Shown: one piece after another, positions 3,260 through 15,130 of the stretch
Layout: every line of letters starts with the position of its first letter
Position numbering within the stretch: position 1 is the first letter of the stretch
Source of the DNA: Candidatus Limnocylindrales bacterium
GTDB taxonomy: Bacteria > Chloroflexota > Limnocylindria > Limnocylindrales > CSP1-4
Reading direction: 5' to 3'
DNA length: 47,825 bases
Assembly: GCA_038252055.1 (NCBI GenBank)
Contig: JBBSAS010000001.1
Span: forward strand, 1 to 47,825
Program-made: the position numbers and the translations under genes
Notes under the pieces: model-generated
Database searches by the model: none
What the model saw: the letters and a program-made list of their open reading frames with translations, nothing else
What the model was told of the DNA's origin: nothing

Positions 3260-3334
3260 TCCGGCGTAGCTCAGTGGTAGAGCGGGCGACTGTTAATCGC
3301 TTGGTCGTAGGTTCGAATCCTACCGCCGGAGCCA
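3260..3334 (+). tRNA. tRNA-Asn (anticodon GTT), CCA encoded
   Basis: Manual cloverleaf: acceptor TCCGGCG/CGCCGGA, D arm GCTC-AGTGGTA-GAGC, anticodon arm GGCGA-CTGTTAA-TCGCT, variable TGGTC, T arm GTAGG-TTCGAAT-CCTAC, discriminator G, CCA. Confidence 0.93.
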
Positions 3335-3347
3335 CAATCTTGCCCGA

Positions 3348-3368
3348 ATGTTACGGATTACGTAACAT
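3348..3368 (+). promoter_or_regulatory. inverted repeat ATGTTACG-N5-CGTAACAT abutting the start of the short AbiEi-like gene (candidate operator)
   Basis: 8-bp perfect arms ending 1 nt before GTG 3369 and 6 nt before ATG 3375. AbiEi-type antitoxins are known to autoregulate through inverted repeats. Confidence 0.5.
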
Positions 3369-3374
3369 GTGCGC

Positions 3375-3881
3375 ATGTCATGGGAAGACCTTCTCGCCAC
3401 TGCTGTCGCTCAACGTGGCTACTTCACGAGTGCCCAGGCCGCCGAACAAGGCATCAGTCGCCGGGCGCTGACGTGGCGTGCCACGCACGGATCGGCCGAG
3501 CGGGCAGGGTACGGACTATATCGCCTCCCGCACTGGCCGATCGACCCGAACGACGACCTCTACGCACTCCAGGCGCGGGCGCCGTTTGGGACGTTCAGCC
3601 ACGACACGGCGCTGAGTCTCCTCGGGCTGTCCGACCTCATCCCCGCCGTCATCCACTTCACCATCCCAGAGGCGTCGCGCCTCCGCTCCCGACCTGGCAT
3701 CCGGCTCCATCGCTCGCGCCACCACGCCGGGACCGACCGGATCCTGCGTGACGGGCTGTGGGTCAGCACCGCTCGCCGGGCGCTGCTCGAGTCGGCCCGC
3801 AGCGGAGCTGATCCGGATCAGCTGCTCGCCGCCGCCCGGGAGGCCAAGGAGCGGGCGATGCTGACGTGCACACAAGACTGA
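3375..3881 (+). CDS. AbiEi_4-like antitoxin-domain protein (short, no adjacent toxin of its own)
   Basis: ORF 3369..3881. N-terminal wHTH-like MSWEDLLATAVAQRGYFTSAQAAEQGISRRALTWRATHGSAERAGYGLYRL, then FSHDTALSLLGL, as in AbiEi N-terminal domain proteins. Confidence 0.65.
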   Translation: MSWEDLLATAVAQRGYFTSAQAAEQGISRRALTWRATHGSAERAGYGLYRLPHWPIDPNDDLYALQARAPFGTFSHDTALSLLGLSDLIPAVIHFTIPEASRLRSRPGIRLHRSRHHAGTDRILRDGLWVSTARRALLESARSGADPDQLLAAAREAKERAMLTCTQD

Positions 3882-3901
3882 AGTCGGGTGAAACTAGCTT
3901 G

Positions 3902-3930
3902 CCTATCGTATCTCGTGGCGATACGATAGG
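3902..3930 (+). promoter_or_regulatory. inverted repeat CCTATCGTATC-N7-GATACGATAGG overlapping the RBS of abiEi (candidate operator)
   Basis: 11-bp perfect arms. The right arm overlaps AGGAG just upstream of ATG 3934. Confidence 0.55.
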
Positions 3931-3933
3931 AGC

Positions 3934-4719
3934 ATGAGTTTCACGCCGGACTGGGTCGACGCGCTCGCTTTCCGCGGTCGGTTCGTGTTCACGCTGGATG
4001 ATGCCGCGAAGGTTGCGGGCACGACGCCGGCCGCGGCCAAGCTCTCGATCCACCGGGCAGCGAGCGACGGGGCGCTGTTCTCGCCCGCCCGCGGGCTGTG
4101 GGTCATCGTGCCCGTCGAGTACCGCGCCGAAGGAGTCCCGCCCTGGCGCAGCTTCCTCGATCCCATGCTCCGGCGCGAGCGGCGGGCCTACTACGTCGGG
4201 CTCCTGACGGCCGCAGCCGAGCACGGCGCGTCCGGTCAGGCGGCGCAGGAAGTCCAGGTCGTCGTGGACCGGCCCCGCGCCACGATCGAGGCCGGCCGGA
4301 TGCGGATTGCGTTCATCACACGCCGCGACGCGGCACGTGCCCCGGTCCGGGAGACGGTCGCCACCACGGGGCGGATCCCCATATCCACACCCGCGATGAC
4401 AGCACTCGACCTCGTGGCGTACCCCCGCCGCGCCGGCGGGTGGGGGAATGTCGTCTCGGTGCTCGCCGACTTGCGCGACGAGATCACGCCCAACGACATG
4501 GGCGCCGTGGTCGCGATGCCGTCGGCCACATCGGGCGCGCAGCGTCTCGGGTTTCTGCTCGAGCGCCTCGGCACATCACCCGACGTCACGGCGCCGCTCA
4601 CCGCTTGCCTCGAAGCGAGGTCCACGACGTTCGTTCCCCTCGACCCCGCGGCGGAGCGGACCGGCACGCGGGACTCCCGCTGGCGCGTGATCGAGAACGT
4701 CGAGGTCGAACCCGACTGA
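3934..4719 (+). CDS. abiEi: type IV toxin-antitoxin system antitoxin, AbiEi family
   Basis: 261 aa, the size and architecture of full-length AbiEi. Its stop overlaps the next start (TGATG at 4717-4721). Confidence 0.75.
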   Translation: MSFTPDWVDALAFRGRFVFTLDDAAKVAGTTPAAAKLSIHRAASDGALFSPARGLWVIVPVEYRAEGVPPWRSFLDPMLRRERRAYYVGLLTAAAEHGASGQAAQEVQVVVDRPRATIEAGRMRIAFITRRDAARAPVRETVATTGRIPISTPAMTALDLVAYPRRAGGWGNVVSVLADLRDEITPNDMGAVVAMPSATSGAQRLGFLLERLGTSPDVTAPLTACLEARSTTFVPLDPAAERTGTRDSRWRVIENVEVEPD

Positions 4720-5504
4720 TGATCCCTCGCAGCGATGTGCTGGCGTGGCGCTCGGTCGCGCCCTGGGCCGATGAGAACGACGTTGAGCAGGACCTGATCA
4801 TCACGCGGGCCGTGTTCGACATCTTCGAGGATCCGTGGCTCGCGGAGCGGCTCGCGTTCCGGGGCGGGACGGCGCTTCACCGTCTCTATCTCGCGCCGCC
4901 AGCCCGGTACTCGGAAGACATCGACCTCGTGCAGCGGATCCCGGAGGGTATCGGACCGACATTCGACCGGCTGCGCGAGCGGCTTGGCTGGATCGGCAGG
5001 ACGCGCCCGGACATCGGGCGCCAGCCGAAGATGAACTTCCACTTCGAGGCCGGCACGGGGAGCTCATCGCCAGCAAAGCGCAAGCTCAAGGTCGAGATCA
5101 ACAGCACCGAACACTTCGGCACGGTCGAGCCGGTCGAGTACCGCATCGAGCACGAGGTCCTCACCCGAACCTGCGCGATCCCGACGTACAGCCTCGAAGA
5201 GCTCCTGGGCACCAAGGTCCGCGCGCTGTACCAGCGCAAGAAGGGACGCGACCTGTTCGACCTGTGGTGGGCGAACACGCATCGCGAGCTCGACCTTGAC
5301 CGGGTGGCCGCCTACTTCCGGCGGTACATGGACCGGGAGGGGAGCAACATGCCCTCGGCGACGCAGATGCGCGCGAACCTCGATGCGAAGGCCGCGGCTG
5401 GCGTGTTCGAGGAGGTCCGCCCGCTCCTGTGGACCGACGTCGCCTACGACGCGGCCGAAGCACTGGCGTGGTTCGAGGAGTTCTTCCTCCCCTTCCTTGA
5501 GTAG
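4719..5504 (+). CDS. abiEii: nucleotidyltransferase toxin, AbiEii/AbiGii family
   Basis: MIPRSDVLAWR... with the NTase signature FRGGTALHRLYLAPPARYSEDIDLV. Translationally coupled to abiEi. Confidence 0.8.
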   Translation: MIPRSDVLAWRSVAPWADENDVEQDLIITRAVFDIFEDPWLAERLAFRGGTALHRLYLAPPARYSEDIDLVQRIPEGIGPTFDRLRERLGWIGRTRPDIGRQPKMNFHFEAGTGSSSPAKRKLKVEINSTEHFGTVEPVEYRIEHEVLTRTCAIPTYSLEELLGTKVRALYQRKKGRDLFDLWWANTHRELDLDRVAAYFRRYMDREGSNMPSATQMRANLDAKAAAGVFEEVRPLLWTDVAYDAAEALAWFEEFFLPFLE

Positions 5505-5527
5505 CGGGGCCGCGTTTTCGGGAGCGC

Positions 5528-8026
5528 GTGTCGACTCGCCCTGTGGTGCTCGTGCATCACGCCGTGAACCAACGAGGTCACGCAGGCGAGCGCTGGGCAG
5601 ACGAAGATGCGCGCGTGGACGACGACGCACGCAACCTCACCGAGCTCCGGCGCGACCTCGAGTGCCTGCGTGCCGAGAACGAGAGGCTCCGGGGGCTGCT
5701 CGGCATGGAGTCGACCGACATGCTGCGGTCTGGGTCGGAATTGCGTCCCACGGGGGCACCTGCCGTCGCCTGGGAACCTCGGCTCTTTCACGACACGCCG
5801 CCAGTCGCGTCGCAACAGCTCATCGATGCACGTTCGTCATCCGAAGCGAAGATCACGCTCTTCCGGTCGCTGTTCGCCGGACGCGAGGACGTCTATGCCG
5901 TCAGGTGGGAGAACCGACGCACCGGGAAGACCGGCTGGAGCCCGGCCGTCGTCGGCGGGTGGGCTAACGCCCGGAATCCCGACCGCGAGCATCTGCCGCT
6001 CGGCGACGGAGTCCTCGAGGCGCACCTGACCGGCCAGGTGCACGTCGGCCTGTACCCGCTCCTCCGCGGCGACACCTGCCGGCTGCTCGCGTGCGATTTC
6101 GACGGCCCGACCTGGCCCCTCGATGCCGTCGCGTACGTCGATGCCGCGCGCGCCACGGGAATTCCGGTTGCCCTGGAGCGCTCGCGATCGGGCGATGGTG
6201 CGCACGCCTGGATGTTCTTCGGCGCTCCTGTTCAGGCATCTGCCGCCCGGCGAATCGGCGCGTACCTTCTCCGGGAGGCGATGACGGTCAGGGCCGAGCT
6301 CGACCTTGCCAGCTACGATCGGATCTTCCCGGCCCAGGACTTCATGCCCAACGGATCGTTCGGCAACTTGATCGCGCTGCCGCTGCAGGGTGCTTGCCGA
6401 AAGCGCGGCACGACGGTCTTCCTCGACCCGGCCACCCTCGGCCCCTACGAGGACCAGTGGGCGTTCCTCGCCTCGCTGGGCCGAAGCTCACCCGAGGCGA
6501 TCACCTCCTTCGCCGAGTCCGTCCGCCTCGTTCCGGCTGGCCCCGACGAGCGGACGTACCGGGCACCACGCGGCCGAACCGCGCCCAACCCGCCCGCGAC
6601 CATCGAGGCCGAAGCCGGCCCGATGCTCTCGATCGACCGGATCGGAATGCCGCCTGCGCTGCTGGCGGCGCTGAAGCACCTGGCCTCGCTCCATAACCCT
6701 GCCTACTACGAGAAGGAGCGGCTGCGTCTCTCGACCTGGAAGACGCCGCGCTTCATCCGCTGCTACGGCGAGACCATCGATCGCCTGCTCCTGCCGCGAG
6801 GACTGCGCGAGGCCGCCGACGCTGTCATCGCGGAGGCGGGAAGCCGGCTCGTGGTCCGGGACGAGCGTTCTCCCCTGTCGCCCATCGATGTCCGCCTGCA
6901 GGCGACCCTGCTCTCCGGCCAGCGTGCGGCGCTCGAAGCGCTCTGCCGTCACGAGCTCGGCGTCCTCGTGGCGCCGCCCGGCGCCGGGAAGACCGTGCTC
7001 GCCTGCGGCGTGATCGCGAGGCGCGCCGTGCCGACACTCGTGATCGTCGATCGCCAACCGCTTGTGGAGCAGTGGCGGGACCGCCTTTCGGCCCACCTGG
7101 GAATCGATCGCAAGCACGTCGGCGTCATCGGTGCGGGACGCCGTCGGCCGGGCGGAGTCATCGACATCGCCATGGTCCAGTCGCTGGCCCGGCGTGAGGA
7201 TCTCGCCGAGATGACCGCGGGGTACGGGTTCGTCGTCGTCGACGAGTGCCACCATGTGCCGGCGACGACATTCGAGCGGGTGGTCCGCCAGCTCGCGGCA
7301 CCCGCGTGGCTCGGCCTGACGGCGACTCCCTACCGGCGCGACGGCCTCGAAGGGCTCATCACGATGTACTGCGGCCCCATTCGGCATCGCATGGGGCCAT
7401 CCGCGCTGGAGTCGGAGGACTTCGAGCGAGCCCTCATGGTGCACCCGACCGCCCACGCCGGACTCGTGCCGCTGGACGACGACGTTCAGGCGGCCGGATC
7501 GGCCATCCAGTCGGTGTTCCGGGGCGTCGTCGAGGACGACGAGCGCACACGCCAGATCTGCACCGACATCGCCGCCGAGGTGCGCGCTGGGCGCAACTGC
7601 CTCGCCCTCTCGCAATGGACCGGGCACGTCGCGCGGCTCGTGGAGGGCCTGCAGGCGCTTGGTATGGAGCCGCTCGTGCTGCAGGGCGGAATGGGCAAGA
7701 AGGTCCGAAGTCATGTCATGGACGAGCTGGCGACGGTGCAGCCCGGGGGAGGCGTGATCCTTGTCGCGACCGGCAGCTTCCTCGGTGAGGGCTTCGACTG
7801 CCCGCCGCTCGACACGCTCTTCCTGGCGTTCCCGATCGCCTTCAAGGGTCGGCTCGTCCAGTACGTCGGCCGCATCCTCCGCCCGGTCGACGGCAAGACG
7901 CGCGTCGAGGTTCACGACTACGTCGACGCCCGCGTGCCCGTTCTCGCCCGGATGCACGCCCGGCGTCTCCCCGCATACGCGAGCCTCGGGTTCGACGTCC
8001 GTCCGAACCAGGTGGGTCGGCACTGA
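5528..8026 (+). CDS. archaeo-eukaryotic primase (PrimPol)-like domain fused to an SF2 DEAD/DEAH-type helicase
   Basis: AEP motifs: LLACDFDGP (DxD), RSRSGDGAHAWMFF (sGxGxH), ASYDRIFPAQD (hD). Helicase motifs: PPGAGKTVLA (I), VVVDECHHV (II), LGLTATPYR (III), VQYVGRILR (VI). Starts 23 nt after the abiEii stop on the same strand. Confidence 0.8.
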   Translation: MSTRPVVLVHHAVNQRGHAGERWADEDARVDDDARNLTELRRDLECLRAENERLRGLLGMESTDMLRSGSELRPTGAPAVAWEPRLFHDTPPVASQQLIDARSSSEAKITLFRSLFAGREDVYAVRWENRRTGKTGWSPAVVGGWANARNPDREHLPLGDGVLEAHLTGQVHVGLYPLLRGDTCRLLACDFDGPTWPLDAVAYVDAARATGIPVALERSRSGDGAHAWMFFGAPVQASAARRIGAYLLREAMTVRAELDLASYDRIFPAQDFMPNGSFGNLIALPLQGACRKRGTTVFLDPATLGPYEDQWAFLASLGRSSPEAITSFAESVRLVPAGPDERTYRAPRGRTAPNPPATIEAEAGPMLSIDRIGMPPALLAALKHLASLHNPAYYEKERLRLSTWKTPRFIRCYGETIDRLLLPRGLREAADAVIAEAGSRLVVRDERSPLSPIDVRLQATLLSGQRAALEALCRHELGVLVAPPGAGKTVLACGVIARRAVPTLVIVDRQPLVEQWRDRLSAHLGIDRKHVGVIGAGRRRPGGVIDIAMVQSLARREDLAEMTAGYGFVVVDECHHVPATTFERVVRQLAAPAWLGLTATPYRRDGLEGLITMYCGPIRHRMGPSALESEDFERALMVHPTAHAGLVPLDDDVQAAGSAIQSVFRGVVEDDERTRQICTDIAAEVRAGRNCLALSQWTGHVARLVEGLQALGMEPLVLQGGMGKKVRSHVMDELATVQPGGGVILVATGSFLGEGFDCPPLDTLFLAFPIAFKGRLVQYVGRILRPVDGKTRVEVHDYVDARVPVLARMHARRLPAYASLGFDVRPNQVGRH

Positions 8027-8352
8027 TGAACCCGCGCTGGTCGGTGGGGAATGCCGCGCGCTGACCGACGGACATGATCTTGAGCGGGTGGCATCGCGGC
8101 CTCGCAGGCTTGGCTGTCCCGGCGTCGTCTCATGCTCTCCCGGCTACGAGCGCGGCCGAGGGCCTCGGCGCAGTCTCGGCATAGACGCTGAGACGGCGAG
8201 CGCCGCTGGACAACCAGCCTGCAGCTCTGGCACGCAAGCGGCGCGAGCTTCAGCCACGAGCGGGAACGGCGAGGGCGAACGAGCGTCAGCTCGCTCGTGG
8301 TCTCGCCTCGCGCAATCAGTAACCGGCCGGCACCCGCCCGCCGGAGCCACAT
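7918..8352 (-). CDS. small Arg-rich zinc-ribbon-like protein, paralogue copy 1 (CxxC...CxDC)
   Basis: ATG at 8352 gives MWLRRAGAGRLLIARGETTSEL...ACQSCRLVVQRRSPSQRLCRDCAEALGRARSRE. It aligns without gaps to the copy at 14879-15130, with mostly synonymous differences in the RSPxQRxCxDCA block. The 3' extent is doubtful because it runs 109 nt into the convergent helicase gene. Confidence 0.35.
   Translation of the reverse strand: MWLRRAGAGRLLIARGETTSELTLVRPRRSRSWLKLAPLACQSCRLVVQRRSPSQRLCRDCAEALGRARSRESMRRRRDSQACEAAMPPAQDHVRRSARGIPHRPARVHQCRPTWFGRTSNPRLAYAGRRRACIRARTGTRAST
8305..8350. repeat. 46-bp perfect direct repeat, copy 1 (GCCTCGCGCAATCAGTAACCGGCCGGCACCCGCCCGCCGGAGCCAC)
   Basis: Identical to 15083-15128, and the flanks diverge immediately. 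Its last 13 nt equal 3323-3335 (tRNA-Asn 3' end plus 1). Confidence 0.9.
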
Positions 8353-8867
8353 CCTGTCGTTGACTTCCAAAGGCTTGTAGCCCAGGCCGGGGTCACGATC
8401 CACACGACGACGCGCCCGCTCCGCGATGCGGATGTCGTTTCCCGTCGCGGCGTCCAGCTCACCGCGCCGGCCCGCACGATCGTCGGGTCCGGGACCTGAT
8501 CGAGGCCGCGGTCGCCGGGGAGCCGGCATGAGGTATACGTCGGCGCCGGCCTTCCGCCGGGCCCCGAGCGGCGCCTGGTCGCGATCAGCGGGGCCACGGG
8601 GCGGTCGCTGGTCCGTCTGCGCGAGGAGGTCGCCTTCGATCGGCTGCTCGGCCGCCTTGTGGCAACTGCCCCAGACCGCTGGCTGCTGAATCGAGCGCAC
8701 CGGCGCTCTCGACCGCGTCGGCGACGGCGCGGCAGTTCCTTCTCCAACGTGGGCTGGGGCGGCGCATCCACCGCGGGCCAATCCGCGCGCGACCGATCGG
8801 CGAATCGTCGTCCTCTCGACGTCGTCGTCGTTGGGATCCAGCGCTCGCCCTGGCCGCAGCCCGTGAC

Positions 8868-8909
8868 ATGACCGAACGTCATGACGCGGCACGGGTGGGC
8901 CGGCACACT
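8868..8909 (+). promoter_or_regulatory. palindromic box module A (degenerate box ATGACCGAACGTCATGAC + N18 + CACACT)
   Basis: Member of the 8-copy family. Points at the hypothetical gene starting at 9020. Confidence 0.5.
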
Positions 8910-9019
8910 CGCGTCCACGCCCCGATCCGGGGATGCGATACGTGCGTCGTCTCGCGAGGCATTCGACCGATGGCCAGGCAGAAGCAGGGTAGAACCAGTT
9001 TCATGAGGATCCCCATCTG

Positions 9020-9436
9020 ATGCCGAGATTGCCCCGCCTCAACCGACTGGCAGCCCTCGCCGCGTTGCCGGCTGTGGGCGGGGTCCTCTCATCGACCGCG
9101 CGATCCGAGACCGCTCGAGACCTCGTGCGCAGAGGGGTGCGCGATCCGCGTGGTCTCGCCCGGTATCTGGCCCACCCTGCGACATCCATCGACCTGGTGC
9201 GACGAGCGAGCCAAGATCCCTCCGTGCGCGAACTGGTTAAGGCCGGTCTCCTGTTCACGCCCATTCGCTACTGGGCGATCGGTCAGGCCGCCATCTGGAG
9301 CGCCCGGAAGGTCGTCCGCCGCCCGCCCCGGGGCAGCCCCGCGGGACCACAGGTCCGGCCCGCTGTCCGGAATGTCACGCCGCCAGAGCGAACCGCAACG
9401 TTGAACCGTACTGACATCGGTGGGGGCTCTGAATGA
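9020..9436 (+). CDS. hypothetical protein
   Basis: ORF track. GAGGA lies 9 nt upstream of the ATG, codon usage is plausible, and I recognise no family. Confidence 0.45.
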   Translation: MPRLPRLNRLAALAALPAVGGVLSSTARSETARDLVRRGVRDPRGLARYLAHPATSIDLVRRASQDPSVRELVKAGLLFTPIRYWAIGQAAIWSARKVVRRPPRGSPAGPQVRPAVRNVTPPERTATLNRTDIGGGSE

Positions 9437-9695
9437 TCGGACTTCATCCGGCCTCGGTGGTCGCCCGTAACTGATGGTGGGCCCGCTCGGATGACGGACG
9501 AGGCTGTGAACGAATCCTGATCTGAAACGGTGAGGCCCTGACAGGTGACGGCCCCGGACACCTCGGCATGGTCACCGCGATCTTGAGATCAACCCGATCA
9601 CCCGCGCACCACGAGCGTCGGCGACACCCCACGCCGCGCCAACCCGCTGATCGCAGGCAAGCCCCGAAGGCGGCGCGTGCGGTGGCTCCGAGGCG

Positions 9696-9737
9696 ATGAC
9701 GAACCGTCATGACGCGGCGGTGTCGGGCCAACACACT
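9696..9737 (+). promoter_or_regulatory. palindromic box module B (ATGACGAACCGTCATGAC + N18 + CACACT)
   Basis: One mismatch to the consensus box. Points at the DUF5661-like gene. Confidence 0.55.
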
Positions 9738-9838
9738 GGCATCATGGTCCGTCCCTCGGGGACCCGGGAGGTCGCGTTTGAATGCGACCCGCACGTCGAT
9801 GCGCCACCGCCGGTCCCACGCAGCCGAAGGAGAATGTA

Positions 9839-10135
9839 GTGGGCACTGTCGATCTGGCCGCCAAGAAGGATTTCACGACCGATGAGGCGCGCGTCATCGC
9901 GGAGGAGCTCAAGATCGATTTCGAGGCCCTCGGGTGCGACCTCGACCAGTTCCGGATGGGGCTCGGCGTCGAGCTCGAACACGGGTCCCGCGACCCGGAG
10001 ACCGACGTCAGCCGCGACGATCCGATCGTCACCGGCAAGATCGCGCTCGCCCACCTGACGGAGTACCCGGACTACTACACGCGCCTGGCCGTCCTGGAAC
10101 GCGAGGCGGCTGCCCACAGGAAGGCGCAGAAGTAG
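9839..10135 (+). CDS. DUF5661-like small protein
   Basis: GTG 9839 preceded by GAAGGAGA. The sequence ...VELEHGSRDPETDVSRDDPIVTGKIALAHLTEYPDYYTRLAVLE resembles the family I recall as DUF5661 (from memory). Confidence 0.6.
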   Translation: MGTVDLAAKKDFTTDEARVIAEELKIDFEALGCDLDQFRMGLGVELEHGSRDPETDVSRDDPIVTGKIALAHLTEYPDYYTRLAVLEREAAAHRKAQK

Positions 10136-10136
10136 C

Positions 10137-10346
10137 GTGCGCGAAGATTCGCGACCGGCATGTATTGGTGGGCTGACGGCACGCTCGGGTTCGCGAGACG
10201 GCACGGACTTCAAGGACCAGGTCGGGAACGCCGGAGATGAGGCGCGCAAGGACCTCGGGAACCTGGGCGATGACGTCCGCACCGCGGGCCGTGAGCCGGA
10301 AGGTCCTCGGGACGACCCGGCCACGACGCCCGAGCGGCCGGCGTGA
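10137..10346 (+). CDS. small hydrophilic protein (start uncertain)
   Basis: The distal two thirds have about 88% third-position GC (DGTDFKDQVGNAGDEARKDLGNLGDDVRTAGRE...). It loosely resembles small general-stress proteins. The proximal part and the start codon are weak. Confidence 0.3.
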   Translation: MREDSRPACIGGLTARSGSRDGTDFKDQVGNAGDEARKDLGNLGDDVRTAGREPEGPRDDPATTPERPA

Positions 10347-10378
10347 AGCCGTCAACACGGACCCAAGTCGGAGATAGC

Positions 10379-10579
10379 ATGCCGTCAGAACCGCCTCAGG
10401 TCATCGTCATCAAGAAGGGCGACGACCACGGCTGCATCATTACCTTGCTCCTGGCGATCATCGCCTGGCCGCTCGCGGTCTTGTACCTCGTCATTCGAGC
10501 GGTGAAGTGGGTGATCGGGACAGGGATCGACTGGCTGACCCTGGGACCGCTTCGTCGTCGGCGCCGTCCGCGGTACTGA
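10379..10579 (+). CDS. small membrane protein (66 aa)
   Basis: ATG 10379 with GGAGA 4 nt upstream (short spacing). MPSEPPQVIVIKKGDDHGCIITLLLAIIAWPLAVLYLVIRAVKWVIG... has one or two TM helices and an RRRRRPRY tail. Confidence 0.55.
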   Translation: MPSEPPQVIVIKKGDDHGCIITLLLAIIAWPLAVLYLVIRAVKWVIGTGIDWLTLGPLRRRRRPRY

Positions 10580-10605
10580 TGGCACCGGGCTGAGCCGATG
10601 CCGGT

Positions 10606-11715
10606 TCACCCAGCAGCTGATCCCTGCCGGCCCGACGATGCCCGGGATGACCGCGCTGGGACCGGCGCCGTCTCGAGGAGATGGATGAGCTCGAGCTCCT
10701 CGCGCCTGTCGGCTGCGACCCCGAGCCCATGTCCGCCCTTCGTCGCTCGTCGGCGGGAGAGTGCCCCCGCGACGAATGCATCCATGACCCTCGGTGCGAT
10801 GTAGCTCTCGCGGCTGACTGCCGGCGTGTTGCCGAGCGCCTCGGCGACGAGCTTGGTCGAGCGCTTCATCGATCGGCGGATGGCGGGCTCCGATGACTCG
10901 ACAGGCGACCGGAGCGCTCGAAACGCGAGCAGCGTCCCCGCCCACGTCCGGTAGTCCTTCGCGCTGATGTCTGCTCCAGCCGTGGCGCGCAGGTACGCGT
11001 TCACGTCGGCCGAGTCGATCGGATGTGGCTCGCCAAGCTCGTCGACATACTCGAACAGCTCCTGGCCGGGCAGGTCCTGGCACCTGGCGACGATGCTCGC
11101 GAGACGCCGGTCACGGATCCCCACCTCGTGCAGTCGACCTCCCTTGCCCCGAAAGCGGAACTGGAGGCTCGTACCGCTCACCACGACGTGCCGGTTGCGA
11201 AGTGTCGTCAACCCGAACGAGCGATTGGTCCGAGCGTACTCCTCGTTCCCGACCCGGAGATAGGTGGTGTCGAGGAGTCGAACGACCGTGGCGACGACCT
11301 TGTCCTTCGTCAGGCCGGGCCGGCCCAGGTCGCGCGCGACACGGCGCCGGATCGCCGGCAGCGACCGGCCGAACGTCGACAGCCGGGCGAACTTCGAGCT
11401 GTCGCGGGCCGCCCGGAATCGCTCGTGGTAGCGGTACTGCTTGCGTCCTCGAGCGTCGCGCCCCACGGCCTGCAGGTGACCGGATGCGTCGCGGCACACC
11501 CAGACGTCAATCCAGGCGGGCGGGATGGCGAGCGCTCGGATCCGGGCGAGCACCTCGGGATCGTGGATGGGCTCACCGTCGGGCGCGAGGTACCGAAACC
11601 CTCGCCCTGCACGGACGCGCCGGAGACCCGGCTGTCGGTCGCTGGAGAATCGCAGGTCATCTGGAGGGCGGACCAGCTCGGGGGATGCGTTGCTCACTCG
11701 CGCCCGCCACCCCAA
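10606..11715 (-). CDS. DNA topoisomerase IB (poxvirus-like bacterial TopIB)
   Basis: Family-typical blocks: PPAWIDVWVC, GRDARGRKQYRYH, FGLTTLRNRHV, FRFRGKGG, DYRTWAGT, and the catalytic-Tyr region SRESYIAP. Confidence 0.8.
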   Translation of the reverse strand: MGWRARVSNASPELVRPPDDLRFSSDRQPGLRRVRAGRGFRYLAPDGEPIHDPEVLARIRALAIPPAWIDVWVCRDASGHLQAVGRDARGRKQYRYHERFRAARDSSKFARLSTFGRSLPAIRRRVARDLGRPGLTKDKVVATVVRLLDTTYLRVGNEEYARTNRSFGLTTLRNRHVVVSGTSLQFRFRGKGGRLHEVGIRDRRLASIVARCQDLPGQELFEYVDELGEPHPIDSADVNAYLRATAGADISAKDYRTWAGTLLAFRALRSPVESSEPAIRRSMKRSTKLVAEALGNTPAVSRESYIAPRVMDAFVAGALSRRRATKGGHGLGVAADRREELELIHLLETAPVPARSSRASSGRQGSAAG

Positions 11716-11817
11716 GCCTGCCTCAGGCGCGCGGCCAGCCCAGGCTTCGCCGGCCGGCCGACCGCGACGAGGCGGCCGGGTCTATCGCGGCCCAGGCCAA
11801 CGCCCATGCGAAGGCAG

Positions 11818-12294
11818 TCAGGTCGCTGGCGAAGCTGCCGTGTCCGGTGCGGCATGAGCTGATGGTCCTCGGTCACGACGTGCTCGCAGCGCACGAGGTG
11901 CAACGGGTCGCGCCTGGCTGATGACGATGGCGCGGGCGAGAAGCTCCTCGGGCGAGAAGGGCATCGTCAGGATGTCGTCGACGCCGAGATCGAAGGCCCG
12001 CAACTTCGTCTTGAGGCTACTCCATCGGGTGAGCCCGAGGACCGGCGTCCCGCTCCGCTTGAGGCTGTTCGAGGCTCCCAGCAACTTGAGCAGCGCCCTG
12101 CTGTCGTCGTGGTCCATGTCGACCACGGACATGTTGGGCGACCACTGGGCCACGATCGCCTTCGCCTCGGCGAGGTTGCTCGCAGCCCGGACGACAAAGG
12201 GGCCGAGAGTGAGCGTCAGCGTGATGAGGCCTACGGCGAGAGGGCGATCGTGGAGCACGAGCACCCGGCGTGCTTCGACTGACGGTGCGCTCAC
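11818..12294 (-). CDS. receiver-domain-only, 3'-truncated paralogue of the atypical OmpR-family regulator at 26939-27721 (possibly a pseudogene)
   Basis: GTG 12294 gives VSAPSVEARRVLVLHDRPLAVGLITLTL...DDILTMPFSPEELLARAIV. It matches the other copy at roughly 85% by eye at nucleotide level. Homology stops near 11900-11925, and the wHTH output domain is missing. Confidence 0.5.
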   Translation of the reverse strand: MSAPSVEARRVLVLHDRPLAVGLITLTLTLGPFVVRAASNLAEAKAIVAQWSPNMSVVDMDHDDSRALLKLLGASNSLKRSGTPVLGLTRWSSLKTKLRAFDLGVDDILTMPFSPEELLARAIVISQARPVAPRALRARRDRGPSAHAAPDTAASPAT

Positions 12295-12472
12295 CTGATG
12301 TGTCCCATCCTCACACGAGGTGGGCTGCCGCCGTGAGTCCGAGCGCCGCGCCGGCCACCGCGACGATGGGGACGAGAAGTGCCAGCAGCGGTGACGTCGC
12401 CGAGACCGCGAGCATGGATGGCATCGTCGGTCGTGACCTCGATATCGACCTGGTGAGCGATCAACCGGCGCC

Positions 12473-12514
12473 AGTGTTTCGTCTCGAGGCTGCTGTGTCA
12501 TGACGGTCCGTCAT
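12473..12514 (-). promoter_or_regulatory. palindromic box module C (perfect box + N18 + AACACT)
   Basis: Points at the truncated regulator gene (start 12294). Confidence 0.6.
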
Positions 12515-12671
12515 CGGAGGGCTGCGAGTGGTTGTTTGGGGACGGGACCTCGCGGCGCCTCAGCGTGATCTCTTTGTGACGGAAGCGGCACGATCCACCT
12601 CCATGAAGAAGGCTTCGACGTCAAGGGCCGCGATCAAGCCGCGACGTCCTCGGGTCGCGATGCCGGGCGTC

Positions 12672-12713
12672 ATGACGGACCGTCATGACGGACCGACGGT
12701 GGGCCGAGATACT
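12672..12713 (+). promoter_or_regulatory. palindromic box module D (perfect box + N18 + GATACT)
   Basis: Points at the 29-aa peptide gene and the Zn peptidase. Confidence 0.6.
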
Positions 12714-12819
12714 GGCATTCGCCAAGGCATCCTCGCGGGGAGGCAGCACGCGCACCAGCGCGATCCGCGCCCCGACGCGACGGCTCAACGGCCTTGCCAG
12801 TCCCGAATAGGAGATCGTG

Positions 12820-12909
12820 ATGAACGCAAGAAGCGGTGGCATTGGGATCATCGGCGTGATCGTCATCGTCGTGGTGATCCTCTTCCTGGTCGGCGTCATC
12901 AAGGTGTGA
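12820..12909 (+). CDS. 29-aa hydrophobic mini-protein
   Basis: MNARSGGIGIIGVIVIVVVILFLVGVIKV. AGGAGA lies 5 nt upstream of the ATG, and third positions are GC-rich. Below the ORF-track size cut-off. Confidence 0.5.
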   Translation: MNARSGGIGIIGVIVIVVVILFLVGVIKV

Positions 12910-13029
12910 GTCCCAGGGTTGAGTGCGTCCTCGCTCACCCTGAGATCACCCGATTCCGGTCCGCGCCTCGATCGCGCCGATTGATCGTTGGATCGAGGCA
13001 TCGTGTGGCGCCCGCGGGAGGCTCGCGAG

Positions 13030-13923
13030 ATGTCGTTCAACCCGGGCGCGAAGCTCGATCCATCGCAGGTCGAGGACGTCCGCGGGTCGCGGGTCGGGGG
13101 GCGCGGCCTGGCCGCCGGCGGCGGTGGGATCGCGATCATCGTGACCCTCGTGTGGGTCCTCCTGGGTGGCAGCCCGACGACCGGCGGGACACTGGGCAGC
13201 CTGGTCGACCAGACGATCGGTGGCGGCGCTGGCGAGCCCGGGCCCGCCAGCAGCGCCCTGGCCAACGAGTGCAAGACCGGGGCCGACGCCAACGCCGGAG
13301 AGGACTGCCGGATCGTCGGCTACGTCAACAGCATCCAGGCCTACTGGACTGACGAGTTCGCCGCCAGGGATCAGCGCTACGTCGGGGCCAGGACCCGCTT
13401 CTTCACCGAGCAGATCAGCACCGGCTGCGGCGTCGCGTCGTCGGCCAGCGGTCCGTTCTACTGCCCGAGCGACACCTACGTCTACATCGATCTTGGGTTC
13501 TTCGACGAGCTGCGCTCGACGTTCGGCGCCCAGGGAGGCCCGTTCGCGCAGGCCTACATCCTCGCCCACGAGTACGGGCACCACGTCCAGGATCTTGGCG
13601 GAACGCTGTCAGGCGGGACCAGCCAGGAAGGGCAGGCCGGGCAGTCGGTCCGGACCGAGCTCCAGGCCGACTGCTACGCCGGCGTCTGGGCGAGCCACGC
13701 GGCCGCGACGGGCTACCTCGTGAAGCTCACGGACGCGGAGATCGCCGATGCCCTTGATGCGGCGGCCGCCGTTGGCGACGACCGGATCCAGCAGGAGATG
13801 CAGGGCCAGGTCAACCCAGAGACTTGGACGCATGGCTCGTCCGCCCAGCGCCAGAAATGGTTCACGGTCGGCTACCAGACGGGGTCGCCGGACCATTGCG
13901 ACACGTTCAGCGGCAACCCCTGA
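13030..13923 (+). CDS. neutral zinc metallopeptidase (YpfJ family)
   Basis: [19 protein letters not shown] start, one TM segment, and the HExxH motif [10 protein letters not shown]. The C-terminal part is family-like. Confidence 0.8.
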
Positions 13924-14024
13924 GTCCAGGACGGACGCAGCCCTGGATGCTCTTTGGTGCGCCACGTTGTTCGTGGCCGGATCCCGCTGCACTGGGGGAG
14001 CGGACGATCGGGCGGCCGCTGAAC

Positions 14025-14099
14025 ATGGTCGGATGGATCACGACCGGCGTGATGTGCCTGGCCGCGATCGGCCTCATCGTGACGACGATCCCAGGGTAG
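14025..14099 (+). CDS. 24-aa hydrophobic mini-ORF (tentative)
   Basis: MVGWITTGVMCLAAIGLIVTTIPG has about 90% third-position GC, but no convincing RBS. Confidence 0.25.
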   Translation: MVGWITTGVMCLAAIGLIVTTIPG

Positions 14100-14363
14100 A
14101 CCTTCTCCACCTCGCGCCGGGACGGCGAGCGGACGACAAGCAGACCCGCGGTGGGCACCAAAGAGAACGCCCGAAGGAACCGCGATCACTAGTTGCTTCA
14201 GCCAATGTAAACACCGGCCGAATCACTAGATGTTCGAAGCCCCTTCGAGCGACTGTATAGTAGCGCCGGCCTGCGCGGAGCGTCAAGTGCCAATCGGCAC
14301 AGCGCGGAGTTGTAACGCTGGCCCTGGGAACTGTCCCTGATCGCGCCCAGCGTCGAGGCGACG

Positions 14364-14549
14364 ATGTCGGTCCTCGGGAGCGTGGCGGCCGGATGCGTGC
14401 TCGACTTCGGGGCGGCCTTGGGGGTCGGGGGTGGGGTGGGCGCTGATCGAGGTCAGGGCCGCGACGAGCAAGAGGTGATCCGCCCTGGGCCCGAGACGAT
14501 GGCGATCCCACGGCGGCGAGGCGCTCGGACTTCCGAGGACCCACGTTGA
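14364..14549 (+). CDS. 61-aa small protein (tentative)
   Basis: ORF track. GAGG lies 5 nt upstream of the ATG. The N-terminal half is hydrophobic (MSVLGSVAAGCVLDFGAALGVGGGVGA) with GC-rich third positions, and the C-terminal half is weaker. Confidence 0.25.
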   Translation: MSVLGSVAAGCVLDFGAALGVGGGVGADRGQGRDEQEVIRPGPETMAIPRRRGARTSEDPR

Positions 14550-14609
14550 GAAAGCTCCTGGATCGGACGCCAGAAGCGGATGCGTCAGGGCCGCACCCCC
14601 GAGGCGCTC

Positions 14610-14702
14610 CTACCCGCGGAGACGACCGCGCCCGAAGTAGCCCAGAATGAAGAGCACGATCAGGACGATGACGACGACGATGACGATGGTTTCGAAACTC
14701 AT
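14610..14702 (-). CDS. 30-aa hydrophobic mini-protein
   Basis: MSFETIVIVVVIVLIVLFILGYFGRGRLRG. AGAGGCGG lies upstream, and the gene sits directly downstream of module E. Below the ORF-track cut-off. Confidence 0.5.
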   Translation of the reverse strand: MSFETIVIVVVIVLIVLFILGYFGRGRLRG

Positions 14703-14797
14703 GGTTGGGTGCCGCCTCTTGATCGAAGCTCGGGAAACCACGCCTATTCAGACCGGGCGCAGCACGCCGCCTTGGGGCGGCGACTCGAGCGGACCTC

Positions 14798-14839
14798 AAT
14801 GTGCGGCCTGAGGGCGATTGCGTCATGACGGTCCGTCAT
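14798..14839 (-). promoter_or_regulatory. palindromic box module E (perfect box + N18 + CACATT)
   Basis: Points at the 30-aa peptide gene (start 14702). Confidence 0.6.
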
Positions 14840-14878
14840 CCATGGACTGCTGCGTGCCCACTCGGCCCGCAGTTGCCG

Positions 14879-15130
14879 CTACCCGGCCTTCCGTGCCCGC
14901 GCGCGCTGGACGCAGACGCGACTCCGTTCGCGATTGAGCGTGCAGGCACAATCAGGGCAGTACCGCTGGGCCGGCGACCGGGGATGGGCGGACTCTCCAA
15001 GGCGCCGGCAGCGGATCTGGGACCGGCTGCGCCATTCCCGCGGTCGAGGAGGGCGGGGGAGTCGGAGTTCGGCCGCTGGGGTGCCTCGCGCAATCAGTAA
15101 CCGGCCGGCACCCGCCCGCCGGAGCCACCT
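14879..15130 (-). pseudogene. zinc-ribbon mini-gene paralogue copy 2, start codon replaced (AGG instead of ATG)
   Basis: RWLRRAGAGRLLIARGTPAAELRLPRPPRPREWRSRSQIRCRRLGESAHPRSPAQRYCPDCACTLNRERSRVCVQRARARKAG*. There is no in-frame ATG/GTG/TTG upstream, and the first CxxC is degraded. Confidence 0.4.
15083..15128. repeat. 46-bp perfect direct repeat, copy 2
   Basis: Identical to 8305-8350. Confidence 0.9.

Follow-up and report, generated by a model that had tools for sequence, protein, structure and literature searches.

The window analysed here comprises 47,825 nt of contig JBBSAS010000001.1 (assembly GCA_038252055.1, forward strand) from a Candidatus Limnocylindrales bacterium with a genome of 70% GC. 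At a tRNA-Asn gene it carries an islet of ~5 kb (3337–8351), whose content is limited to an orphan abiEi gene, an abiEi–abiEii toxin–antitoxin pair and a gene for an 832-aa protein (5528–8026), assigned here to the family of the Escherichia coli enhancer of insertion-sequence excision (IEE). The tRNA-Asn (GTT) was located by ARAGORN at 3260–3334 on the + strand, and the islet is integrated at its 3′ end. A 14-nt direct repeat, CCGCCGGAGCCACA, spans this end at 3323–3336 as an attL-like core, and an exact, attR-like copy was found at 8338–8351, 312 nt past the stop codon of the helicase gene; in shuffled sequence, 0.09 matches at ≤1 mismatch were obtained. G+C content at third codon positions (GC3) was 0.75–0.85 in the cassette genes and 0.89–0.96 in the flanking genes. 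Because repeats from the tRNA-Asn end bound the four genes and their GC3 is lower, they are read as one horizontally acquired unit at tRNA-Asn with the IEE-like gene last. The initial annotation, made from the letters of the window and a list of its open reading frames (ORFs), had placed the polymerase–helicase gene next to a tRNA and proposed that the four genes act as one unit. The tRNA does abut the cassette, though not the helicase gene itself, and the unity holds for acquisition, while the ~90% of family members that lack AbiE argue against an AbiE-specific composite mechanism. Using Pfam, no integrase or transposase was detected in the islet or elsewhere in the window, and the repeats leave no space for an integrase between them. 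Among the fetched loci, no nucleotide-level relatives of 3335–3940, 8027–8400 or 8352–9800 were found.

The IEE-family gene (+ strand) starts with GTG and runs for 832 codons, and its GC content by codon position (GC1/2/3 = 0.74/0.50/0.85) is that of a genuine gene. The exact start may be any of the first ~13 codons; it was placed in this stretch because the ADEDA segment of the N-terminus is common to the closest two homologues (P0002 and P0005), and the majority of homologues start ~30 residues later. The coiled N-terminal segment noticed earlier corresponds to a leucine zipper at codons 37–58 (5636–5701, +), with heptad positions L37, L40, L44, L47, N51, L54 and L58, an Asn (N51) at a core position and the sequence LRAENERLRGLL at residue 47. 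The pattern is conserved both in an alignment of 38 homologues (A1) and in IEE, and AlphaFold2 placed most of it in a long N-terminal helix of residues 21–57; this model was moderate (predicted local distance difference test, pLDDT, 69; predicted template-modelling score, pTM, 0.39) and was used at the domain level only. The zipper is probably a dimerisation element, suited to bridging two DNA ends.

The archaeo-eukaryotic primase (AEP) catalytic domain, of the primase-polymerase (PrimPol) clade and Z1568-like, occupies codons 108–327 (5849–6508, +), where Pfam AEP-TOTE (PF22548) matched aa 108–327 with E 1.4e-76. It contains the motifs DFD (residue 190), SGDGAHAW (221) and YDRIFP (263); the key residues D190, D192, H226 and D264, together with the steric gate Y176, are all invariant in A1. 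The sole strong PADLOC match of the 832-aa protein was the Cas-associated PrimPol model (PDLC01465, 9e-84). The superfamily 2 (SF2) ATPase core was assigned to codons 461–800 (6908–7927, +), with motif I GAGKT at residue 485 (K488), motif II DECH at 572, motif III TAT at 598 and motif VI QYVGRILR at 778 (R782); Pfam ResIII matched aa 461–603 (E 7e-22) and was followed by Helicase_C. The residues of the AEP and SF2 motifs are invariant or nearly so in A1, and the motif set, found exactly where the initial annotation had put it, is far beyond chance. For the C-terminal half, the best PDB sequence match was archaeal XPB (6p4f, 1.2e-22), and XPB likewise came out on top in Foldseek with the AlphaFold2 model (E 1.5e-19). 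Archaeal XPB/Rad25 proteins (PDB 6p4f, 5tnu, 2fwr) are the nearest solved relatives of this half, at ~415 aligned Foldseek columns and ~20% identity; XPB itself, however, lacks an AEP domain, and it acts together with the Bax1 nuclease or as part of TFIIH.

IEE of E. coli O157:H7 is a 786-aa protein with a Z1568-like AEP and an SF2 helicase-like domain (PMC9943667, which cites Kusumoto et al. 2011). In BLASTP, the window protein matched IEE (ECs_1305, Sakai genome) collinearly over aa 43–824 versus 9–777, with 36% identity and E 3e-161, and the alignment took in the N-terminal ELxxLRAENxRL motif; IEE itself matches Pfam AEP-TOTE with 1.7e-98. The N-terminal LRAEN.RL helix, the Z1568-like AEP domain, the middle region and the SF2 ATPase follow in the same order in both. 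All IEE residues that have been shown or modelled to be catalytic are paired with invariant ones of the window protein: D142 and D144 with D190 and D192, H178 with H226, D216 with D264, the Walker lysine K451 with K488 and the arginine finger R735 with R782; IEE Y128, which stands in place of the ribose-sensing His, corresponds to Y176. AEP motifs A, B and C plus the Tyr and SF2 motifs I, II, III and VI are thus all present over a full-length match. Given this collinearity and the conserved catalytic residues, we assign the 832-aa protein to the known IEE family. It is accordingly not an uncharacterised fusion; the initial annotation had missed this characterised homologue.

IEE is a Mn2+-dependent, error-prone DNA polymerase that joins 3′ overhangs with ≥4 bp of microhomology, for which both domains are required, and a DNA-dependent ATPase with undetectable unwinding; a primase assay is not among the experiments reported, and the gene was found in one third of E. 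coli genomes (PMC9943667). It promotes transposase-dependent excision of copy-out-paste-in insertion sequences (ISs) (bioRxiv 10.1101/2023.06.07.543989). Like the window gene, E. coli IEE is carried by an integrative element that occupies a tRNA site (SpLE1). That element measures 86 kb; the IEE gene lies ~8 kb into it, its neighbours are DUF3987 and YagK-like genes, and no toxin–antitoxin module stands upstream, whereas the window gene sits in a 5-kb islet immediately after AbiE without an IS or transposase nearby and encodes an extra ~35 residues at the N-terminus.

The genes ahead of the IEE-like gene were assigned by Pfam and PADLOC, which upheld the earlier naming of AbiE. First comes a gene for a short AbiEi_4-type antitoxin/regulator of 170 aa (3369–3881, +; Pfam AbiEi_4 1.6e-08, PADLOC AbiEi PDLC02249 2.2e-57) without a cognate AbiEii beside it. 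In three related loci (L009, L093, L078), AbiEi_4-type proteins like this one occur at the same tRNA-proximal position as partners of a different AbiEii subtype; the orphan may be an antitoxin left from a replaced module. It is followed by the AbiEi antitoxin gene (3934–4719, +; 261 aa; Pfam AbiEi_1 2.5e-34, PADLOC AbiEi 2.9e-72) and the gene for the AbiEii nucleotidyltransferase toxin (4719–5504, +; 261 aa, from residue 208 of a long ORF; Pfam AbiEii 6.8e-33, PADLOC AbiEii 1.3e-84), in which the motifs GGTAL, DIDL and RDLFDL were read directly from the sequence and are intact. AbiEi, with a winged helix-turn-helix and an AbiEi_1 C-terminal domain, thus precedes AbiEii, a DUF1814 nucleotidyltransferase, in one predicted operon. 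The stop codon of abiEi overlaps the start of abiEii (TGATG), and that of abiEii (5502–5504) is separated from the GTG at 5528 by 23 nt on the same strand, as first annotated. An inverted repeat, CCTATCGTATC-N7-GATACGATAGG (3901–3929), with perfect 11-bp arms, ends 5 nt before the abiEi ATG and is a candidate AbiEi operator; in L015 and L018 an unrelated repeat is built alike, with 11-bp arms around a 7-nt spacer, and lies in the same place (about −37 to −9). No terminator-like site was found inside the cassette, and promoter and terminator scans rose nowhere above shuffled controls. Based on the 23-nt gap, the TGATG overlap, the lack of an internal terminator-like site and the conserved position of the palindrome, abiEi, abiEii and the IEE-like gene most likely form one operon, which would be read from a promoter shortly ahead of abiEi that AbiEi represses. 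The full-length AbiEi_1 and AbiEii proteins, the overlapping start and stop and the upstream palindrome resemble an autoregulated AbiE operon of the type IV toxin–antitoxin systems. Described AbiE systems are, to our knowledge, two-gene modules, whereas the window adds a 2.5-kb third gene after 23 nt and an orphan AbiEi ahead of the pair.

The cassette had been proposed to be a composite defence system, in which AbiEi, AbiEii and the PrimPol-ATPase would act jointly. Infection might, for instance, free AbiEii and de-repress the enzyme against invading DNA, with a phenotype beyond that of AbiE alone. The co-occurrence analysis suggested for this was carried out on 163 loci remaining after deduplication (from 4 that an exact look-up of the protein gave, 80 in species-representative genomes, 80 in metagenomes and that of the window itself). 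AbiEii was detected with three iterated hidden Markov models (HMMs); a tblastn search with the window-type AbiE recovers its own subtype only. The AbiE counts are lower bounds, because a fourth AbiEii, a divergent one in L010, escaped the HMMs. In both sets, AbiEii was the commonest Pfam family at the two gene positions upstream of the helicase (8/148 and 8/112 proteins). By HMM, it was the co-oriented gene immediately preceding the helicase in at least 11 of 117 usable loci, whereas of the other called flank genes 4 in 1308 were AbiEii (odds ratio 34, p 7.5e-10, from counts uncorrected for shared ancestry). Adjacency varied with identity to the window protein: 6/9 loci at ≥70%, 3/6 at 60–70%, 1/25 at 50–60%, 1/36 at 43–50% and 0/25 below, so that AbiEii is adjacent in 9 of the 15 close relatives (≥60% identity). 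At least three AbiE subtypes (A, B and C), mutually invisible to BLAST, plus the fourth in L010, occur next to IEE-like genes, at AbiEii-to-helicase gaps of 13–91 nt. Adjacency was retained even where the subtype had been swapped, as in L001, whose helicase gene has 83% nucleotide identity to that of the window and yet adjoins a different AbiE type. The AbiE–IEE association is recurrent and has probably been selected.

In L018, an ISL3-family transposase gene (8515–9783, −) was observed inside abiEii, of which a 101-aa fragment remains 28 nt ahead of the IEE-like gene; here an IS sits within a cassette that itself encodes a putative enzyme of IS excision.

Joint action is further favoured by the 'conflict system' name of the AEP family in Pfam, by the PADLOC match to Cas-associated PrimPol and by neighbourhoods rich in defence- and toxin–antitoxin-type genes. 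Against it stand the ~90% of family members without AbiE, the 50 of 117 loci with a divergent upstream gene, in which the enzyme thus stands alone, and the mechanistically unrelated toxin–antitoxin modules that occupy the same slot. The co-oriented gene just upstream usually belongs to a module of this type: HTH_17 plus PIN_3 (L102), HipA (L098, L111), TacA plus GNAT (L077), Gp49/HigB-like (L068), HTH plus a DUF6036 nucleotidyltransferase (L149) and, in still other loci, PIN_3/DUF433, MNT-type nucleotidyltransferases or Fic. Downstream neighbours are of the same kinds, together with integrases. E. coli IEE, moreover, functions without AbiE. Profile, structure and PADLOC searches bore out the AEP–SF2 fusion beside AbiE, but no known-defence PADLOC model covered the fusion beyond generic helicase and PrimPol matches. 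Since most of the family lacks AbiE and other modules fill the same slot, the data argue for a partnership with toxin–antitoxin modules in general, neither AbiE-specific nor obligatory. A composite defence system is on this evidence considered unlikely.

BLAST-level clustering of flank ORFs yielded no universally conserved neighbour, the largest cluster covering 9/82 loci. This cluster (9 loci) is formed by a conserved pair of ~124 aa and ~388 aa without Pfam match, located upstream in Pseudonocardiales-type loci (L031, L032, L044, L045, L048, L082; e.g. L045 8440–8814 and 8811–9977), which may be an undescribed two-gene module replacing the toxin–antitoxin pair. Schlafen AlbA_2 + HATPase_c_4 + wHTH proteins also recur beside IEE-like genes (L089 1866–3314, L090 155–1987 and 4–5 metagenome loci), accounting for 5/112 upstream proteins in the metagenome set and 2 downstream proteins in the genome set.

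The reading we prefer, at a probability of roughly 60%, is an IEE-type repair polymerase/ATPase that is co-carried with a stabilising and possibly co-regulating toxin–antitoxin module, the two being modular rather than integrated. By homology with IEE, the AEP domain would act as a Mn2+-dependent, dNTP-preferring, error-prone polymerase, which would realign primer and template and extend 3′ single-stranded ends paired via a microhomology of few bases. The SF2 domain would be a DNA-dependent ATPase that grips duplex DNA and draws two ends together without classical unwinding, and the zipper would dimerise the enzyme for bridging both ends. In cells, intermediates of recombination or transposition would be resolved or aborted in this way, giving rise to IS excision and deletions. 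The toxin–antitoxin pair would stabilise the islet, and may make the production of a polymerase with mutagenic potential depend on the release of antitoxin repression.

Several points weigh against this reading. The biochemical and in vivo functions are known from E. coli IEE only, which is 36% identical, and with no transposase or IS in the window by Pfam there is no evident local substrate for IS excision. Operator and co-transcription are deduced from sequence geometry, the repeat at the window tRNA measures a mere 14 nt, and genes in the related loci were called by a crude GC3-based caller. Finally, the odds ratio of 34 and the adjacency in 9/15 close relatives would also be explained by direct functional coupling.

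Small tRNA-integrating genomic islands are known to be stabilised by toxin–antitoxin modules, an example being the toxin–antitoxin pair on SXT-type elements. Comparable units of 3.8–7.5 kb, combining an IEE-like gene with a toxin–antitoxin module, were recognised in L002, L093/94/96, L078/83, L077, L149, L111, L068, L050 and L033, bounded by 13–37-nt repeats that correspond to tRNA-Pro, -Glu, -Leu, -Arg, -Met or -Thr 3′ ends. In each of these tRNA-bounded islets the IEE-like gene is the largest. They share tRNA 3′-end direct repeats, a toxin–antitoxin module and, in relatives of the window islet, a tyrosine integrase with the known islands, but differ from them in measuring only 3.8–7.5 kb, in having an IEE-family gene as the sole large gene and in that several, the window islet included, lack an integrase. 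A tyrosine integrase was found beside the tRNA in L068, L111 and L033, the three larger islets tested; the small islets are too tight for one. The AEP enzyme was also considered as the maker of the tRNA-end repeats, and this idea was dropped: as a tyrosine integrase adjoins the tRNA in the larger sister islets, ordinary integrases are held responsible for the repeats. The window islet would then be a reduced derivative or one mobilised in trans.

These islets bear on a second alternative, namely that the PrimPol-ATPase serves element maintenance by replicating the excised circle or healing the junctions of minimal tRNA-integrating elements, of which the window would hold an integrase-less derivative. 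At least 10 independent islets at seven tRNA species with the IEE-like gene as largest gene, three of them with an integrase, are in line with such a role, as is the finding that AEP–helicase fusions are replicases in other integrated elements (PMC5862659). However, tRNA-bounded islets were present in 13/163 loci only (about 10 without near-duplicates), a subset and not the general case, and a tRNA within 4 kb was found in 28/163 loci, near the rough chance estimate of ~12%. Replicative primase-helicases (pRN1 ORF904-, P4 alpha- and PICI Pri-Rep-like) combine an AEP or DnaG with a hexameric helicase of SF3 or DnaB type and a Zn-finger or PriCT helper domain, and they lie in a replicon. The window protein, in contrast, has an XPB-like SF2 part, and Pfam detected no Zn-finger or PriCT-type helper domain in it. 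Y176 and the polymerase profile of IEE look repair-like, and IEE shows neither detectable unwinding nor a reported primase assay (PMC9943667). Phage records contained no full-length copy, their matches being restricted to the helicase half, and full-length copies were rare in mobile replicons, with 116 of 72,556 plasmids, mainly large ones, and about 22 IMG/VR contigs. Homologues thus do not lie overwhelmingly in plasmid or integrative-element replication modules; such a concentration was what the initial annotation had named as speaking against a defence role. An origin from phage or plasmid replication was rejected by the searches of the phage, plasmid and IMG/VR collections. Taken together, we regard a maintenance function as distinctly improbable.

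The family as a whole is large. At least 5,418 proteins matched at E≤1e-10 in a word-indexed search, those listed being almost all of ~800 aa with the same domains, and 2,530 clusters at 50% identity matched at E≤1e-30 in an exhaustive search. NCBI names them 'TOTE conflict system archaeo-eukaryotic primase domain-containing protein', 'TOTE conflict system AEP domain-containing protein' or 'DEAD/DEAH box helicase'; the TOTE name given in the initial annotation agrees with these names, carried by close homologues, and with the PF22548 match. Many representatives among P0154–P0267 are longer (930–1130 aa); in these the IEE-like part is displaced by 50–370 residues, and they hence have extra N- or C-terminal domains. 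They may be variants tied to true TOTE systems. TOTE stands for TPR, OB, TBP, Effector conflict systems (Aravind, Iyer & Burroughs 2022, in the summary contained in PMC12458937). These systems gave their name to the Pfam family into which the AEP domain of the window protein falls. TPR–OB/cold-shock or TBP partners were found neither in the window nor among the common neighbour families of about 160 loci. No cas genes were detected in the window by Pfam and PADLOC, nor among the neighbours, in a survey that included no dedicated CRISPR-array scan. CRISPR-associated primase-polymerases (PADLOC PDLC01465) have a related AEP catalytic domain, whereas that of the window protein is joined to an XPB-like SF2 ATPase and encoded beside a tRNA and AbiE, and PDB 7nqd/7nqf, which we take to be CRISPR-associated PrimPol structures, matched this AEP domain at a weaker E of ~1e-08. 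An effector of a canonical TOTE system or a PrimPol of CRISPR spacer acquisition, as the Pfam name, the PADLOC model and the 7nqd/7nqf match might suggest, is very hard to reconcile with an islet made up of AbiE genes and an IEE-like gene without TPR, OB/cold-shock, TBP or cas neighbours, and was disfavoured from these data.

With the 832-aa protein read as a co-carried repair enzyme of the IEE type, what is new is its setting: a tRNA-bounded islet of three or four genes, in which a toxin–antitoxin operon runs into an IEE-like gene and the modules are swappable. In the accessible IEE literature, no description of such an arrangement was found. The linkage to toxin–antitoxin modules, the enrichment of AbiE and the tiny tRNA islands bear on how IEE is regulated and on why bacteria and mobile elements keep it. 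For annotation, 'IEE-family' is preferable to 'TOTE' or a generic 'DEAD/DEAH helicase' wherever the TOTE partners are missing. A wider and rather speculative proposal is that IEE-family PrimPol-ATPases are the signature of widespread, undescribed minimal tRNA elements of 3.8–7.5 kb, composed of a tyrosine integrase, a swappable toxin–antitoxin module and an IEE-like gene, often integrase-less, in which the antitoxin switches the enzyme. If this doubtful proposal were true, the toxin–antitoxin module and the IEE-like enzyme would be a coupled pair for excision, replication or repair of the element, or for stress- or infection-triggered action on invading DNA, and IEE would have a natural role beyond IS excision.

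A 46-nt perfect direct repeat, the last 13 nt of which equal the core of the tRNA-Asn 3′ end, was also noted at 8305–8350, with the right 14-nt copy at its 3′ end, and at 15083–15128. It delimits a second unit (8351–15128) with genes for a DUF5661 protein (9782–10135), a bacterial topoisomerase IB (10606–11715, −), a response-regulator-like protein (11818–12501, −) and a Zn peptidase (12988–13923), and again without an integrase. This looks like two elements accreted in tandem at tRNA-Asn, neither with an integrase. Between the helicase gene and the DUF5661 gene, codon-position GC did not point with confidence to coding sequence in ~1.75 kb (8027–9781), and the ORFs there have no Pfam match; this stretch may have decayed where the two units join. 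Within it, two 48-nt copies of an imperfect direct repeat (8868–8915 and 9696–9743; 75% identical and 828 nt apart) surround an ORF at 9020–9436, and both begin with the palindrome ATGAC(N4)GTCAT.

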